Positions 675-13,542 of a stretch of 13,542 bases of DNA are shown in pieces. The DNA is from a virus. The DNA is taken from the IMG/VR virus record IMGVR_UViG_3300038465_000133; one strand, written 5' to 3'. A program made the position numbers and the translations under genes. The notes under the pieces are model-generated. The model was not told where the DNA came from. It made no database searches and saw nothing but the letters and a program-made list of their open reading frames with translations. How positions within the stretch are numbered: the stretch's first letter is position 1; every line of letters starts with the position of its first letter.

Positions 675-920
675 TTACCCGTGACGCTCGGTCTTCGAGC
701 GATTGTTCACGACGCTGCGGATCCGCAGGGCCACGTGCGCCATGGCCTGGCGCTGGGTTTGCGGCATCGACCCGCCGTAAGGCACAGCGCCCATGGCGCC
801 GTTGGAGGTCTCCCAGGAGTACTCGCCGCCGTTTTGGCTGGCGGAATGCTTGACCTTGTAATCGTCGGCCAACACCGCTCCGTTCGGATGGAGGGTCCTG
901 AGGTTCTTGGCGATTCCCAT
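675..920 (-). CDS. hypothetical protein (81 aa)
   Basis: ATG at 918-920 sits directly after the TAA of the upstream mini-gene (…AGGAGAGAAGTAAATG). Residue composition is diverse. The overlapping R/P-rich ORFs 550..978 and 707..988 look like off-frame artefacts. Confidence 0.5.
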   Translation of the reverse strand: MGIAKNLRTLHPNGAVLADDYKVKHSASQNGGEYSWETSNGAMGAVPYGGSMPQTQRQAMAHVALRIRSVVNNRSKTERHG

Positions 921-1061
921 TTACTTCTCTCCTCTGCGGTCGCGAAATACTGACGTCGGGCAGTCGGGGTTTGGACACTGGCCCTCATCCCCTACAGTCA
1001 GTTTGGCATTACAAGCCTTACAGTGTCCTGCAGGAGCGAAGTCTCCGTCTTTCCTCGCCAT
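921..1061 (-). CDS. zinc-ribbon mini-protein (46 aa) with C-terminal F-R-D-R-R-G-E-K tail
   Basis: Not in the ORF track because it is under 60 aa. ATG at 1059-1061 overlaps the TAA of the 1061..1300 gene (TAATG), and TAA lies at 921-923. Translation: MARKDGDFAPAGHCKACNAKLTVGDEGQCPNPDCPTSVFRDRRGEK. It has a CxxC…CxxxxC zinc ribbon and is paralogous to the 1592..1774 product. Confidence 0.5.
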   Translation of the reverse strand: MARKDGDFAPAGHCKACNAKLTVGDEGQCPNPDCPTSVFRDRRGEK

Positions 1062-1300
1062 TACTTCTCTCCTTTGGCAGCGCATCCAGGGCAGGATTTG
1101 GCGAACACCTCATTGTGGCCGACGTAATAGCCGTGCTCGCAGAAATAGCGTTGGTGGGCGGCGGGCTGCTTGGCGGCCCACTTGTTGTGGCGGTTTACGA
1201 AGGCGGGTTCAGCGGCGTCGCCCTTAATGTCGTGATAGATGGGATCACTTGGATCTCTGCTGCGCATGTCGGTGCCCTTGAACTGTCGGCTGAACTGCAT
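1061..1300 (-). CDS. hypothetical protein (79 aa) ending in CPGCAAKGEK
   Basis: ATG at 1298-1300 overlaps the TAA of the upstream gene by 1 nt (TAATG). The 3' end, …AAAGGAGAGAAGTAA, is identical to the 3' end of the 921..1061 gene. Confidence 0.5.
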   Translation of the reverse strand: MQFSRQFKGTDMRSRDPSDPIYHDIKGDAAEPAFVNRHNKWAAKQPAAHQRYFCEHGYYVGHNEVFAKSCPGCAAKGEK

Positions 1301-1500
1301 TACTCACCCCGCCGATCATGGAAGATCATCTGCCCGTGTTGATCGTGGGTATGCGTAATCATGGTGGGGTTGTTCTCGTACTCATCGTGCGCCCACTCAT
1401 GGAAGGTGCGCAGGGAGTGGCCCTCGCGCTCGGCGAAGTTGCCCTCGTAGAGGGTGCCGGGCGGGTGCTCCTTCTCTAGGTGCTTGGTAATGGAGCCCAC
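1300..1500 (-). CDS. hypothetical His-rich mini-protein (66 aa) ending in …MIFHDRRGE
   Basis: GTG at 1498-1500 is the first start after an in-frame stop. A weak RBS is present. The C-terminal FHDRRGE motif is shared with three other small genes. Confidence 0.4.
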   Translation of the reverse strand: MGSITKHLEKEHPPGTLYEGNFAEREGHSLRTFHEWAHDEYENNPTMITHTHDQHGQMIFHDRRGE

Positions 1501-1591
1501 GATGGCCGAGGGATTACCCGGCTCTGCGGGTTATAAACGACTGGGTGAACTGCTTGGCGTTCCCCAGGTTCGAGTCGGACATGCCTAGAGG

Positions 1592-1774
1592 CTAGCTGCG
1601 CCGGTCATGAAAGAGAATGTCATAGACATTATGCTCATTCTCAGGGCAAGTGGGATTTGTACACTCCCCGTCCCTGAGAGTTTGCTCACACGCTCCACAC
1701 TTGTTCATTCCAGGATGTTCGCTCAGCGGCTTCATGTAGCCACTACTAGCGTCGTAGTAATGGTCTTTAGCCAT
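1592..1774 (-). CDS. zinc-ribbon mini-protein (60 aa) ending in …LFHDRRS
   Basis: ATG at 1772-1774 is preceded by GAGGAGA at a 7-nt spacing. The track's GTG at 1810 is less likely. The gene overlaps the 3' end of the 1767..2687 gene by 8 nt (ATGGCTAA). Translation: MAKDHYYDASSGYMKPLSEHPGMNKCGACEQTLRDGECTNPTCPENEHNVYDILFHDRRS. It is paralogous to 921..1061. Confidence 0.5.
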   Translation of the reverse strand: MAKDHYYDASSGYMKPLSEHPGMNKCGACEQTLRDGECTNPTCPENEHNVYDILFHDRRS

Positions 1775-2687
1775 TGATAGTCTCCTCGGCGATCTCGCAC
1801 ATTGGTCCACATTGTATGACAGGCTCGGTCTTGAAGTTGCCGCGCTTGGGATCCAGTTCGTCGAGGAAAACTGGACTCTTCACCCGGGATCCCTCAGTGA
1901 TCTCCTCGGAGTTGATGGCATGGCCGATGGTACGCTCAAGCCGGGCCATGCGATCGAACGTCTCGGGGAAATCGACCCGGATCTTGTTCCAGTAGCCCAT
2001 CTTGCCCTTGACGCAGCCGATGCAGTTGTTATGGTCGTAACCGAGGTCATACATGATCGGTAACTTGATCCCGGCCCGATCGATCATGGCAAGACAGTCT
2101 GATTTGGTCAGTCCCATTTCAATGAGGTTCCACCAAAAAACCTCACCCGGATTACGCTCGACAAAGTCGGCGGCTCGCTTCTTCTCCTCGAAGGTGTAAC
2201 CAAAGATCTGACGGTCTGTCGGGCGCATGAACTCATAACGAAGTCGACGCTTTAGCTCTGCCGTACAACGAGCCCCGTCTGGACCGGCCAAGAATCTGGT
2301 CTGCTCAAAGACGTCCCAAGTGTCCTTATAGCGATCGCTCTTCAAAACGGTGACCTCTTGACCGAACCACTCTTCACAGTCATGGAGGAACCGAAAGTTG
2401 TCCTCATGTTCGGACCCAGGGTCGGTGTAAACGATTTCACACGGTCCTTTGGCGATCGCCAACTTTGCCGCAACTGCTGAGGACGCTCCGCACGAGAACC
2501 ACACCACAGTTCTAGGTCTATTAATCTTCCGTCGCGGGGACGGCGATCCGAATCCGATTGCCGCCGGTGCTTCCATCGAGCCCATCCTTCTTTGGGCGGC
2601 CCGCCACTGATCGTTATCAGTGGTGTTCTTTTCGCGAAAAGATCGAAGCACGCTCTTTTTATGGTCGGGAACTTCTTCCTCTGCCAT
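1767..2687 (-). CDS. PAPS-reductase-family PP-loop protein (DndC/CysH-like fold)
   Basis: …RTVVWFSCGASSAVAAKL… is a variant of the SGGKDS PP-loop of the PAPS reductase family. A downstream …ARCTAELKRRL… block resembles the CCxxRK motif, and there is a C-terminal CIGC pair. The start is uncertain: ATG at 2687 (TAATG-coupled to the upstream gene), or ATG at 2576 preceded by GAAGG at a 9-nt spacing. The second option would leave 2577-2686 intergenic. G+C is moderately lower than in the flanking genes. Confidence 0.6.
   Translation of the reverse strand: MAEEEVPDHKKSVLRSFREKNTTDNDQWRAAQRRMGSMEAPAAIGFGSPSPRRKINRPRTVVWFSCGASSAVAAKLAIAKGPCEIVYTDPGSEHEDNFRFLHDCEEWFGQEVTVLKSDRYKDTWDVFEQTRFLAGPDGARCTAELKRRLRYEFMRPTDRQIFGYTFEEKKRAADFVERNPGEVFWWNLIEMGLTKSDCLAMIDRAGIKLPIMYDLGYDHNNCIGCVKGKMGYWNKIRVDFPETFDRMARLERTIGHAINSEEITEGSRVKSPVFLDELDPKRGNFKTEPVIQCGPMCEIAEETING
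2604..2641. promoter_or_regulatory. two adjacent perfect inverted repeats: CCACTGAT-cgtt-ATCAGTGG (2604-2623) and CTTTTCG|CGAAAAG (2628-2641)
   Basis: Read directly from the sequence. On the plus strand the first hairpin is followed by TGTTCTTTTCG, giving an intrinsic-terminator-like shape. The pair lies just upstream of the PAPS-reductase-like PP-loop region, and is intergenic if that gene starts at 2576. Confidence 0.3.
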
Positions 2688-3073
2688 TATCGTCTCTTTC
2701 CACTCGCTTTGCGGGCTAATGATGCAAATGACTTGGCCCGCTGCTGTGATGCTCTGATCTCTGCGCCGGGCCGTGGTGCTCTTGATTGGCGGGGCTGGCG
2801 GGGCATGTCCTTGCGCAGCGGATTATCGAGGTCGCCCCGCTTTGGGCGGTCATCTTGCTTGAGGCCCTCGCGGATCCCTCGCATGTACTCGTTCTTGGCC
2901 GCCTGGCCCTTGAGGCTCTTGAGCTTCTCACGATGCTCGGCGCCCTCACGAGAGCCCTTGTAGTAGGCCTCTTGCTCAGGGGGGAGGCCGAAGTCGTCGG
3001 GCGGCTCTTCAGGGGCCTTGGCCGGGCCGAGGTAGTTGCTAATCGATTCTCTGAAGCTTTGGCCCCTACCCAT
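2687..3073 (-). CDS. hypothetical highly charged, low-complexity protein (128 aa)
   Basis: ATG at 3071-3073 is preceded by GAGGTGAGG at an 8-nt spacing. The track's GTG at 3085 has no spacer. TAA at 2687-2689 overlaps the next ATG. The product is K/R/E/P-rich and looks disordered. The antisense ORF 2786..3115(+) is L/A-rich and is rejected. Confidence 0.45.
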   Translation of the reverse strand: MGRGQSFRESISNYLGPAKAPEEPPDDFGLPPEQEAYYKGSREGAEHREKLKSLKGQAAKNEYMRGIREGLKQDDRPKRGDLDNPLRKDMPRQPRQSRAPRPGAEIRASQQRAKSFASLARKASGKRR

Positions 3074-3314
3074 CAGAATCCTCACCTCTACGGTCGTGAA
3101 ACACGTCGAGCATGAAGGCGGGGTGACGCCCAGTGGAAGGACCTATTGGACCGTCGTGCCAATCAACCGTGGCCTGAAAATGCGGACCCTTGCCCTTATT
3201 CACCTTGCGAACGGTGCCAATAGGTGAACCTTCTTTGGCAGGAAGACCTGAACCAGGGCGGCGGCGAACTTGATCACCAACCTTGACCTTAGGAGTAACC
3301 ACCTTCCTCGCCAT
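3066..3314 (-). CDS. hypothetical basic protein (82 aa) ending in …LDVFHDRRGEDSDG
   Basis: ATG at 3312-3314 and TAG at 3066-3068. Fourth member of the C-terminal FHDRRGE set. The N-terminus MARK… matches that of 921..1061. Confidence 0.5.
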   Translation of the reverse strand: MARKVVTPKVKVGDQVRRRPGSGLPAKEGSPIGTVRKVNKGKGPHFQATVDWHDGPIGPSTGRHPAFMLDVFHDRRGEDSDG

Positions 3315-3336
3315 GTAATCAGTGTACCGTGATTAC

Positions 3337-4573: not shown

Positions 4574-4891
4574 CTAGCGGCCCCAATCCTTCAGTAGGCA
4601 TCTCAGGACAATGGCCGTGATCTCCTCACCGTTGCCGCCGGTGACGGTCTGGCAGCCCGGGATCAGGTACATATCCTCTCCCTGACCGGCCAAGAGCTGG
4701 CGGGCCCGAACGGTACCTTTGACAGCCTGATTTACCGCTCCGGCACCGATGGCCCGCAGAGTAATGCACTTCTCTTCGGCGATCGATGAGACCAGTAATG
4801 CAGCAATCCCGCCGACATCAGACCCGGGGCGGATCTTAATGGGCTCTAGGGGCTTTCTTGGTTCGTCGGACGGCAGCGGCAGCAGTGTCAC
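4574..4891 (-). CDS. SpoVS-like (stage V sporulation protein S family, Alba-like fold) protein
   Basis: …ITLRAIGAGAVNQAVKGTVRARQLLAGQGEDMYLIPGCQTVTGGNGEEITAIVLRCL… aligns by eye with SpoVS …IQAIGAGALNQAVKAVAIARGFVAPSGVDLICIPAFTDIQIDGEERTAIKLIV…. The start is uncertain. GTG at 4891 gives about 20 extra N-terminal residues and a 56-nt overlap with the upstream gene. No ATG lies near the expected N-terminus. Confidence 0.6.
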   Translation of the reverse strand: MTLLPLPSDEPRKPLEPIKIRPGSDVGGIAALLVSSIAEEKCITLRAIGAGAVNQAVKGTVRARQLLAGQGEDMYLIPGCQTVTGGNGEEITAIVLRCLLKDWGR

Positions 4892-11765: not shown

Positions 11766-13542
11766 CTAAGCGTTTACAGCTGTGTGGGACGTGCCATTCA
11801 ACGGGCGACCCGCCAGGGTCTTGGCTGCGCTCTCTAAGGGCGTGCCCTCGAACACCCGGCTCAAAAGGTCTGCCGTCGTGACCCCGGCAGCCATAGCAGC
11901 GGGACCCATGGCCGTAATGATCGTAGCGGTCAGTGTCTGATCACCGAAGACCTCGATGGCCTTGATCATGTCGGGCGAAACAGCTTCGAGACGCCGAATG
12001 AACTCAGAGGTCTCAGCGACAAGGCGCTCCATCTCCATAGCGTCGGTCGCCGCCGTCTGATTAAGAACGCCAGCAAAGCGTTCCCACTCAAGCTCGATTT
12101 CCCGAGTAATGATCTTGGCCCGTTCTTCGAGCGTGAGCAGCCGGAGTTCTTCGTTGCGCTTATCCGCATTATGCTTTGCAGCGCCACGCTCCCACTCAAG
12201 CTCCGTCGCCTGTCGCCACGTGGACTGCCGCTCCAGCGAAGACTCGCGCTCTAACTCTTGGAGGCGGGCATCGCGCACCGTAGCGTCCTCAGCAATGGAG
12301 AGTTGAATAGCGCCAGCGAGCGCCTTGCCCTGTGCATCATTGAGGAGGGCGGCCACGTTCTGGTCCTGAATGTCGACGCTTAGGACTTCGACGTCGTAAA
12401 CGTGCATGCCGTTCTCTTCAAAGGTCAACCCGAGGCGGCCGTCTGCGCCGGGCGTACCAAGAAGTTCGTCGCGCACGATGTTAATCGTGTCGAGGTAAAA
12501 CGACCGAATGTCGTACTGCTTGGCCGCATTACGCAGCCGGGACCGGGCATGGTCAGTGAGGGCCTGGACATAGTTCTCCAGAGAGAACCACTGCAGCTCG
12601 TCGCCGATGAAGTTGACCCGGTAAGAGACGCCGATGGCCACACGCACGAGGTCACGAGTCTCGACCAGGATGCGATCGCTGACCACATTATTGAGCGTCC
12701 GCAGATAACCGGTGCGCAGGAGCTTCTCGTCGTTCTTCGGGCGGCCGGTCGACAGTGCCAAGGCCATAATCGTCTCGTCATATTCGAGCAAGACGGTGCG
12801 AGGGCCCATCTCCACTCGCCGGTCGCCGGTCTTGTTGGTCACCAGTACGGCATAGCCGGGCCAGATATTCAGCGAAACGGCTCCCTCGTACTTGGTGTCG
12901 AGGGTAATCGTGCGGGCCCCTCGATACGTGGTGCTGCGGCTCATGGCATCACCACCAAAGTTCTGGATGTCAGGGAGGGCTGAAGCACTAGCAAGACTTG
13001 CGCTGGCATAGTTCGTCGAAGTCAACCCTCTAATACTTCGCATCGTTCCGGCATCAAGAGCATCCATTGTGGCCGCCGCTGCCTCCTGTGCAGCACTCTC
13101 TTGCTGATAGCGCTGATTTACCTGCAGCGCCTCACTGTTGCCCGGATACATGAGAGTGACGTCGTGCGGATCAAGGATCCGGCGCACCACCACTTCAAAG
13201 CGCGGGTCGGGCAGGAACATGGCAGGACCACGCTCCAGATTGACCTGGCCGGTGCGGCGGTCGAGAACGTAGCGGCCCTCCCCAGCGGGAATGGCGATGG
13301 CGTGATGCTTGCGCTGATCGCCGTAGGTAATAATGCTGTGCTCGGGCCGGGGGAAGTAGATGGCCTGCTCTTTCCCGGTAATGAACAACTCTTCACCGAC
13401 CAGATGGGTCCCGTTACTGTCGGTGTATTCCTCGATTACTTTGACATAAAGCCCACTGCGCTCGTCAAGCTCGATGGCCTGGAAGTTACGACCACCTTGC
13501 TTGTTACGACGGAACGACTCGGTTGGCCGAGGGAACACGACG
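11766..13542 (-). CDS. major vault protein (MVP) homologue; 5'-partial, roughly 300 N-terminal residues expected outside the window
   Basis: The frame is open to the right edge and TAG lies at 11766-11768. The alignment with human MVP is by eye but collinear. Repeat hallmark …NGTHLVGEELFITGKEQAIYFP… matches GEEWLVxGPxxYxP. …GRYVLDRRTGQVNLERGPAMFLPDPRFEVV… matches [34 protein letters not shown]. …RRVEMGPRTVLLEYDETIMALALSTGRPKNDEKL… matches …[34 protein letters not shown]…. …ILVETRDLVRVAIGVSYRVNF… matches …[21 protein letters not shown]…. The shoulder WFSLENYVQALTDHARSRLRNAAKQYDIRSF matches [31 protein letters not shown]. The cap-helix coiled coil (…AIQLSIAEDATVRDARLQELERESSLERQ…) and the cap-ring region (…MIKAIEVFGDQTLTATIITAMGPAAMAAG…) follow in order. 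Confidence 0.8.
   Translation of the reverse strand, partial: VVFPRPTESFRRNKQGGRNFQAIELDERSGLYVKVIEEYTDSNGTHLVGEELFITGKEQAIYFPRPEHSIITYGDQRKHHAIAIPAGEGRYVLDRRTGQVNLERGPAMFLPDPRFEVVVRRILDPHDVTLMYPGNSEALQVNQRYQQESAAQEAAAATMDALDAGTMRSIRGLTSTNYASASLASASALPDIQNFGGDAMSRSTTYRGARTITLDTKYEGAVSLNIWPGYAVLVTNKTGDRRVEMGPRTVLLEYDETIMALALSTGRPKNDEKLLRTGYLRTLNNVVSDRILVETRDLVRVAIGVSYRVNFIGDELQWFSLENYVQALTDHARSRLRNAAKQYDIRSFYLDTINIVRDELLGTPGADGRLGLTFEENGMHVYDVEVLSVDIQDQNVAALLNDAQGKALAGAIQLSIAEDATVRDARLQELERESSLERQSTWRQATELEWERGAAKHNADKRNEELRLLTLEERAKIITREIELEWERFAGVLNQTAATDAMEMERLVAETSEFIRRLEAVSPDMIKAIEVFGDQTLTATIITAMGPAAMAAGVTTADLLSRVFEGTPLESAAKTLAGRPLNGTSHTAVNA

Follow-up and report, generated by a model that had tools for sequence, protein, structure and literature searches.

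Short docking motifs are well catalogued in eukaryotes and poorly catalogued in phages. The internal proteins of bacteriophage T4 are diverse, and their capsid-targeting sequence (CTS) is the only feature that they have in common (PMC3012670). The large terminase (TerL) of P22, T3 and lambda binds the portal by means of its C-terminal tail, and the P22 adaptor gp4 likewise inserts its C-terminal tail between portal protomers (PMC5290284, PMC5389665). Here we describe a short linear motif, F-x-D-R-R, at the C-termini of four minus-strand mini-proteins (p1–p4) encoded on a viral contig of 13,542 bp (IMG/VR record IMGVR_UViG_3300038465_000133), which was analysed whole and is called the window below. 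The window is phage-like, with 58% GC and almost all of its genes on the minus strand, a megablast search of it against cultured phages gave no match, and its source contig was not recovered from IMG/VR by exact-sequence search.

The four open reading frames (ORFs) that a preliminary description of this DNA had placed on the minus strand are all present (Table 1), and inspection of the sequence bears out its wording of their tails and of the codons that encode them (tails are quoted here up to the stop codon). Forms of the tag such as …LDVFHDRRGE and PRPDLFHDRRGEGRRTAPY serve as examples. In the six-frame translation of the window F[HR]DRR occurs exactly four times, always at the C-terminus of one of p1–p4 and 1–6 residues before the stop. 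Given the amino-acid composition of the window proteome (4177 minus-strand residues), chance would yield 0.005 copies, with a Poisson probability of 3e-11 for four or more; simulating the window 2000 times with a first-order Markov model gave a mean six-frame count of 0.046 and never more than one. All four are also predicted as genes by independent gene callers on L033–L035, three shorter contigs of this phage. The proteins p1 and p3 are paralogous zinc-ribbon proteins (CxxC…CxNPxCP; BLASTP E = 1e-5) and p2 and p4 are unrelated to them and to one another, so the tail is common to three independent families and not to four. No Pfam match was obtained for any of p1–p4, and a homologue search with p4 recovered only p4 itself among 5.8e9 proteins. 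In an AlphaFold2 model of p4 (single sequence, mean predicted local distance difference test score, pLDDT, of 60) residues 15–52 form a beta core, residues 74–82 have a pLDDT below 50 and the motif (residues 72–76) straddles the boundary of the low-scoring region, giving weak support to a floppy tail.

The motif is conserved as a peptide. Among 17 aligned motif DNAs from the window and its relatives, codon positions 1 and 2 are fixed and the wobble position is free, the information is periodic, and arginine alternates between CGN and AGR codons. The sole orthologue found for p1–p4 is P0015, a homologue of p2 on a 996-bp contig (L130) with 71% nucleotide identity. Comparison of synonymous with non-synonymous change covers p2 only: the F-H-D-R-R codons show four synonymous and no non-synonymous changes, and the 57 aligned codons that precede the last eight show 17 and 16, respectively. 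The preliminary description had argued for conservation of the peptide and not of a DNA repeat, and had proposed this comparison of the tail codons; the free wobble positions, the codon switches and the result for the p2 pair all favour selection at the peptide level. Conservation of the Shine-Dalgarno (SD) nucleotides with free residues upstream was not what we saw, F-H-D-R-R being kept across the four synonymous changes and the CGN/AGR switches. The F-x-D-R-R peptide is under purifying selection.

The R-G-E codons, as had also been pointed out, double as the SD sequence of the next gene: AGAGGAGAG, GGGGTGAG and AGAGGTGAGG lie 2–7 nt upstream of the starts of g81, p79 and p132, and these start codons overlap or adjoin the preceding gene at the p1/g81, p2/p79 and p4/p132 junctions. 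The stretch GGT GAG TAA TG (GGTGAGTAATG) is nucleotide-identical between p2 and its L130 orthologue. A near-identical junction cassette of SD, stop and start, A[A/G]AGGAGAGAAGTAA(A)TG, is found at p79/p1 (1058–1078) and at p1/g81 (918–935), and for this reason both p79 and p1 end in …GEK. Cassette and motif are separable, since p79 has the cassette without the motif and p3 the motif without the cassette. Furthermore, E is nearly invariant in N-terminal copies of the motif and in copies eight codons before the stop, where an SD role is impossible, so the glutamate also belongs to the peptide motif. In the window G-E is dual-coded, as peptide and as SD of the next gene. The preliminary description had taken the tail to be possibly in part a by-product of translational coupling, with F-x-D-R excepted; p3 indeed carries F-x-D-R-R without any SD.

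Carriers in other phages were found by a degenerate DNA scan of IMG/VR for F-H-D-R-R-G-E codons, which returned contigs with several in-frame terminal copies on one contig. Two of these, L043 and L054, are syntenic with the window (exonuclease - WhiB - g109 - RecA - PolA, 36–42% identity). L043 has three paralogues between RecA and PolA, with the tails …AWRDIFHDRRGE, …EWQSVFHDRREE and …AWGDIFHDRRRGA, and L054 has a tail …NPRPDLFHDRRGERDA that the ATG of the next gene overlaps, as at p4; motif copies are also present on L082 and L083. A longer form, Φ-F-H-D-R-R-x-E-G-R-R-x-x-P, lies either nine residues before the stop or near the N-terminus of proteins of 74–96 residues. The full consensus in relatives is (P-D)-Φ-F-x-D-R-R-x-E-G-R-R-x-x-P with the core Φ-F-[H/R/x]-D-R-R-(x-E), and the window motif ends right after G-E, without the G-R-R-x-x-P half. 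Carriers with an N-terminal motif are P0002, P0004, P0007, P0008, P0013, P0019, P0020, a DUF7178 protein and a 485-residue protein. The motif is always terminal in its carriers, and its flanks are G/N/D-rich linkers. A profile search with the motif matched only 17 proteins among 5.8e9, and an exhaustive hidden Markov model search of 1.84e9 representative proteins matched only nine, with no annotated domain context gained; the carriers matched in this way are all small hypothetical proteins without a Pfam domain. BLAST between carrier families aligns the motif alone. The closest relative, L063/L296, has the gene order of the window (PolA 56%, RecA 54%) and carries variants: …QGQLFTDRRK on a 194-residue protein that looks ParB-like by eye and has no Pfam or NCBIfam match, …TGFKDRRQKNV, an N-terminal MVDFNDRRKEIKPRP… (MVDFNDRRKE…) and …GLFNDRRMRSG…. 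These variants leave the second position of the motif free and define F-x-D-R-R as its invariant core. The motif is attached to the flexible C- or N-termini of many unrelated, fast-evolving small proteins, and its carriers belong to phages related to Streptomyces Borockvirus. Two other candidate relationships were dropped: p2 had appeared by eye to be the N-terminal part of a 110-residue carrier on L043, and BLASTP aligns only IFHDRR between them; and the ‘FFSDRRK’ seen in relatives belongs to a conserved stretch of polymerase, in the exonuclease domain of PolA, and is not the motif.

The location of the carriers is informative as well. With the portal gene of one carrier contig as anchor, 80 loci were collected, in which the backbone is TerL, a conserved protein of ~135 residues (c138), a variable gap of 0.4–2.5 kb, portal and scaffold. 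The c138 protein is without a Pfam or PHROG match, yet it is present in every relative including BRock (gp155) and Alone3 (gp72). In loci with a portal identity of at least 77% the gap is occupied by small genes, most of them motif-bearing, which change from one close relative to the next, and its content varies even between phages with 85% identical portals (L131–L169, e.g. L060: 4205–10440). The carriers in the gap include proteins with a C-terminal …FHDRRxEGRRxRPx and proteins with an N-terminal M…NPRPDLFHDRRxEGRRxAPY…, together with the DUF7178 and 485-residue proteins, both tagged at the N-terminus, and a conserved protein of ~70 residues with …TLWNDRRDPHANP…. Counted on the coding strand at the same portal identity, [FWY]xDRR occurs 67 times in 95.9 kb (the 3 kb upstream of each portal) vs nine times in 442 kb elsewhere, a ~34-fold concentration of the motif upstream of the portal, between TerL and portal. 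Each of the 27 loci that extend 2.5 kb or more beyond the portal on its upstream side has a match, and in more distant portal relatives (54–58%) the gene directly upstream of the portal starts MVDFHDRR…. Several of these phages carry motif genes near RecA as well as near the portal (L043, L066 and L158 are one phage, and L051, L082 and L137 another), so one genome uses the tag in more than one module. As a separate observation, members of the family with an N-terminal motif (P0002, P0004, P0007, P0008, P0010 and P0013, e.g. L060: 8413–8679) have a second conserved end, …[IVL]-T-[YF]-S, and such ends (…PITYS, …PVTYS, …PLTFS, …APSYS) lie directly before the portal start codon.

By portal and PolA sequence this group is closest to the cultured Streptomyces phages BRock, Alone3, LuckySocke, GiJojo and pSt2308 (Borockvirus), the Borockvirus portal (gp149 in BRock, gp78 in Alone3) being 60% identical to that of L060 (8680–10440) and PolA 30–32% identical to that of the window; Borockvirus phages share a module of RecA … resolvase - WhiB - Cas4-exonuclease. 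Coding [FWY]xDRR matches number only two in the complete genome of Alone3 (116 kb), and both are C-terminal: gp181, a protein of 61 residues ending …VNFRDRRVRSAGRPKKAS, and TerL itself, which ends …NNPFYDRRR. The TerL tail of BRock is …NPFYDRRR and that of L192 …NNPFYDRRRS; other TerL tails in the group are …NPFYSRRRN, …SPFYRRRK and …SPFHPRGR.

Controls outside this group were clean. Neither a p1–p4 homologue nor a coding terminal motif was present in relatives anchored on the PP-loop gene of the window, be it 32 IMG/VR loci (306 kb) or 80 metagenome loci (385 kb), and 1.04 Mb of loci syntenic for PolA-RecA-g109-exonuclease (PolA 33%, RecA 46–49%) contained no coding terminal copy. When 185,579 genomes of bacteria and archaea were scanned for FHDRRxEG[RK]R by way of one restricted codon pattern, 38 matches came back; the 21 that translate to the motif are all out-of-frame GC-rich junk, and neither a prophage nor a cellular protein was among the carriers. 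The occurrence of the motif is thus patchy and specific, and not general to GC-rich phages. The motif has no match in Pfam, PHROGs or a full-text literature search, and a literature search for DUF7178 returned nothing relevant. Around 80 IMG/VR contigs (L297–L375) share the PolA-RecA-g109-exonuclease order and have a RecA closer to that of the window than is the RecA of the Borockvirus-like group, and they have neither WhiB nor the motif. The distribution of the motif does not simply track the phylogeny of the replication module.

Table 1. Features of the 13,542-bp window discussed in the text (SD, Shine-Dalgarno sequence; tails end at the stop codon).
Feature	Coordinates	Strand	Description
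DpdA (DNA 7-deazaguanine transglycosylase family)	1-522, off left end	-	Pfam PF23859, E = 7.5e-61
SD-stop-start cassette AGAGGAGAGAAGTAAATG	918..935	-	p1 R-G-E-K codons are the SD for g81 (ATG 918-920)
p1	921..1061	-	46-aa zinc-ribbon mini-protein, tail …TSVFRDRRGEK; called as gene on L033-L035; paralogue of p3
p1 F-R-D-R-R motif	933..947	-	TTT CGC GAC CGC AGA
p79	1061..1300	-	79 aa, tail …AAKGEK on GGAGAGAAGTAA cassette, without F-x-D-R-R; orthologue on L130
GGT GAG TAA TG	1298..1308	-	G-E codons, p2 stop, overlapping p79 ATG
p2	1300..1500	-	66-aa His-rich mini-protein, tail …QMIFHDRRGE; P0015/L130 orthologue tail …ILFHDRRGE
p2 F-H-D-R-R motif	1309..1323	-	TTC CAT GAT CGG CGG
p3	1592..1774	-	60-aa zinc-ribbon mini-protein, tail …DILFHDRRS; without SD cassette or coupled downstream gene
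p3 F-H-D-R-R motif	1598..1612	-	TTT CAT GAC CGG CGC
PP-loop / PAPS-reductase-like enzyme	1767-2687	-	306 aa, weak Pfam match, SCGASS loop
p132	2687-3073	-	128-aa gene downstream of p4; homologue conserved on L130
p4	3066..3314	-	82-aa mini-protein, ORFan, tail …LDVFHDRRGEDSDG (shorter quote …DVFHDRRGEDSDG)
AGAGGTGAGG (R-G-E codons) with overlapping p132 ATG (3071-3073)	3071..3089	-	from the sequence
p4 F-H-D-R-R motif	3087..3101	-	TTT CAC GAC CGT AGA
SpoVS-like small protein	4574-4891	-	PF04232 on JGI L033 call
MVP-like protein	11766-13538	-	590 aa; Pfam MVP_shoulder 3.3e-22, Vault_3 1.5e-8; maybe truncated at the right end of the window

The neighbouring DpdA and PP-loop genes place the four mini-genes inside a probable DNA-modification module. 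Leaderless transcripts are common in Actinobacteria; p4 has no SD of its own, and its ATG is preceded by TACACT and six further nucleotides (3315–3336, minus strand), a sequence compatible with a TANNNT −10 box at the spacing of a leaderless transcript. The octamer GTAATC(A/C)C recurs upstream of p4, of p2 and of the L130 orthologue of p2. In the gap between p3 and p2 there is a 23-codon ORF (MSDSNLGNAKQFTQSFITRRAG; 1511–1582, minus strand), whose start resembles that of a conserved 180-residue protein of L063 (18182–18724, MSDSNFGGGKAMSQLYTAGPSG…) with homologues in L043 and L054. The short ORF may be what is left of a truncated gene. The Joint Genome Institute (JGI) calls on L033 and L034 put a 109-residue gene on the opposite strand, across p132 (2786–3115, plus strand). 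The minus-strand reading is probably right, given the p132 homologue on L130 (…ARMASGKRR vs …ARKASGKRR) and a coupled start inside the tail of p4. The SpoVS-like protein is conserved in L063 (60% identity) and in the group of loci with 33% PolA identity (~35%).

The explanation that we favour, with about even confidence, is that F-x-D-R-R is a portable terminal docking tag, for which the packaging vertex (the portal of the procapsid) would be the leading candidate partner, a function suggested by sequence pattern and gene position. The vertex is named because the tag resembles the tail of the terminase and because motif genes cluster beside the TerL and portal genes. The four tails are copies of one short linear motif, kept at the peptide level and, in the window, cut after G-E, with the G-E codons reused as the SD of the overlapping next gene; according to this scheme the tag would recruit varying accessory proteins to a single partner. 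More speculatively, that partner may be the portal of the procapsid, with the tag mimicking the portal-docking C-terminal tail of TerL, and the tag may load small proteins into the procapsid or park them there, as the T4 CTS does. The broader proposal, possible in our judgement but doubtful, is that Streptomyces-type phages use the ~8–17-residue F-x-D-R-R-x-E(-G-R-R-x-x-P) as a universal packaging-vertex ticket, usable at the N- or the C-terminus and found in the terminase tail as well, such that small accessory proteins acquiring it would dock on the portal and be taken into the capsid, or would compete with the terminase there.

Several observations weigh against a role at the packaging vertex. 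The four genes of the window lie in a DNA-modification and replication region, between the PP-loop enzyme and DpdA and not beside TerL and portal, the TerL and portal of this phage being outside the 13.5 kb covered, and their tails are without the second half of the long consensus. The scaffold and capsid genes downstream of the portal are nearly free of motif matches in a regular-expression scan. The exact F-Y-D-R-R-R tail of TerL is found only in Borockvirus and L192, and TerL in the motif-rich metagenomic clade ends …TPW…RRA…RRR. The contigs L297–L375 (RecA 46–49%) are without the motif, making its distribution patchy. Finally, nucleic acid or a host protein is an equally conceivable target for an arginine-rich peptide.

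In one alternative the partner is a host hub, for instance RNA polymerase, a protease adaptor or a protein of replication or division, on which the tag would dock the small proteins for takeover or anti-defence, in the manner of clamp-binding and SSB-tail motifs. Bacterial hub-binding motifs may sit at either protein terminus, and the beta-clamp motif QL[SD]LF, the SSB tail DDDIPF and the T4 gp45-binding tails resemble the tag in having a hydrophobic or aromatic anchor (…D-L-F…) and in occurring on unrelated proteins. The carriers are hypervariable accessory genes, as this idea would have it, and the window four, the L043 trio and P0014, whose neighbourhood includes an ArdC-like gene, are in early, accessory or replication regions rich in tiny ORFs. 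We nevertheless regard a host hub as unlikely: the ~34-fold concentration of the motif between TerL and portal falls inside a late, structural operon, and the C-terminus of TerL itself carries the motif in cultured relatives. Unlike the clamp and SSB motifs, the tag has an invariant F-x-D-R-R, no conserved Q (the residue at position −4 to F is not Q in the aligned instances, which departs from Q-L-[SD]-L-F and Q-x-x-L-x-F) and an F that is not the C-terminal residue. The genome scan, with its one restricted codon pattern, also found no cellular protein with the extended motif that could have been mimicked. An arginine-rich arm that binds nucleic acid, either phage DNA or an RNA element, would account for up to four arginines and an aromatic residue in 12 positions, for the zinc-ribbon carriers (p1, p3 and P0014) and the ParB-like L063 protein (so described by eye, with no family match), and for a TerL tail that could contact DNA. 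Simple arginine-rich arms, however, do not usually have invariant acidic residues, as D and E are here, or a spacing as strict as that of F-x-D-R-R; the version in the window retains just two arginines, and no conserved RNA or DNA element was found alongside the motif, none having been sought; a nucleic-acid role is quite improbable. A PilZ-like RxxxR (cyclic di-GMP) interpretation of RR-x-E-G-R-R was set aside, as no carrier has a PilZ or any other Pfam match.

Degradation signals can also be terminal, and the N- and C-degron classes of ClpXP are short exposed terminal signals on unrelated proteins. The tail shares these properties, including its occurrence at either end, and might direct its small carriers to a protease of host or phage, so that they are removed at a set time; but it has no likeness to known actinobacterial or ClpX/ssrA-type degrons, its distance to the true C-terminus varies from 1 to 11 residues, and its presence on the C-terminus of TerL is hard to reconcile with degradation, all of which makes a degron very improbable. 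That the tail acts in cis on the ribosome, in termination or re-initiation, or is a by-product of SD and coupling combined with chance, draws on the SD function of the R-G-E codons for the overlapping next gene in p1, p2, p4, L043 and L054 and on the nucleotide identity of the G-E codons in the p2 orthologues. This idea is largely refuted, since p3 has the motif without SD or coupled gene and p79 the cassette without the motif, since N-terminal copies and copies eight codons before the stop cannot serve termination or as an SD, since F-H-D-R-R changed only synonymously in the p2 pair and since the chance probability is ~3e-11. A leader or follower of ribosomally synthesised and post-translationally modified peptides (RiPPs) was ruled out, the motif being also on proteins of 194–485 residues, on the DUF7178 protein and on TerL.

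The preliminary description had compared the tails to peptides that target cargo to protein compartments, such as the terminal tags of varied cargo in encapsulin or vault shells would be, and had speculatively linked them to the MVP-like gene of the window. The first viral MVPs have been reported in gut phages (2023 preprint, bioRxiv 10.1101/2023.11.10.566534). The MVP-like gene of the window is real by its Pfam matches and lies on the strand of p1–p4, and the tails are terminal and probably flexible. Against this, tblastn with the MVP-like protein found nothing in ~2.1 Mb of related loci and in those collected later, motif-rich relatives included, nor at the syntenic position upstream of PolA in L063/L296, and a close-relative scan of IMG/VR found no MVP-like relative. 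The motif is thus maintained in many genomes without a visible MVP-like gene (large contigs were read in part), and no MVP-like gene co-occurs with it in any fetched motif-bearing locus. Known vault cargo docks by an INT-type domain of ~160 residues (the mINT of PARP4) and not by a short peptide; the tails are 7–17 residues long, on whole proteins of 46–82 residues. Encapsulin cargo-loading peptides have a GSL-type consensus, to which F-x-D-R-R bears no likeness, and there is no encapsulin (HK97-fold) shell gene in the window. PARP4 has itself been described in the vault cage (PMC12280208). We therefore consider it scarcely credible that the tail serves to load cargo into a shell made of the MVP-like protein, and if a compartment is involved the evidence points to the capsid and portal rather than to a vault-like shell. 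The general notion of a shared targeting tag on diverse mini-proteins survives, and is strengthened by the recurrence of the motif on unrelated proteins in relatives.

The motif is clean, statistically solid and confined to one phage group, and it singles out dozens of mini-proteins that cannot be annotated in other ways as sharing one partner; the window adds a tidy example of dual coding, in which the last two motif codons are the ribosome-binding site of the next, overlapping gene. Should the partner of the proposed docking tag be the portal or procapsid, this would explain the hypervariable gene cluster between TerL and portal in Borockvirus-like phages, identify candidate injected proteins and give a small tag with which foreign proteins could be packaged into Streptomyces phage capsids. 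The universal-ticket proposal, if true, would imply a swappable, hypervariable set of co-injected proteins, possibly with anti-defence roles, and an independent invention of the T4 capsid-targeting function, with a ready tag for loading foreign proteins into actinophage heads.

In conclusion, the proposed docking tag may be compared with two known phage systems. The terminase tails of P22 (gp2 residues 483–499), T3 (gp19) and lambda (gpA) are basic, flexible C-terminal peptides that dock on the portal clip (PMC5290284, PMC5389665). BRock, Alone3 and L192 have a flexible basic peptide at the extreme C-terminus of TerL, the BRock and Alone3 ends match the F-x-D-R-R core, other TerL tails of the group have an aromatic residue and then RRR, and motif genes cluster beside TerL and portal; the Borockvirus tail is likened to these portal-docking tails by sequence, portal binding being known from P22, T3 and lambda only. 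Unlike a terminase tail, the tag sits on small non-terminase proteins and may be N-terminal, so that p1–p4 would at most mimic the tail. In T4 a short terminal peptide, the CTS of IPI, IPII and IPIII, directs diverse, fast-evolving small phage proteins to one assembly (PMC3012670). The carriers described here are likewise hypervariable accessory genes that share the tag only, as seen in BLAST comparisons and in the three families of the window. The two peptides have no sequence similarity, however, and the T4 CTS sits at the N-terminus, from which the prohead protease removes it at a defined site, whereas F-x-D-R-R is found at either end; the four window copies are all C-terminal, and no protease site or link was identified. 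The T4 CTS binds the scaffolding core, and encapsidation of the F-x-D-R-R carriers is a prediction from sequence pattern and gene position. A shared terminal tag on diverse small phage proteins has precedents, and the F-x-D-R-R motif itself matched nothing in Pfam, PHROGs or a full-text literature search.

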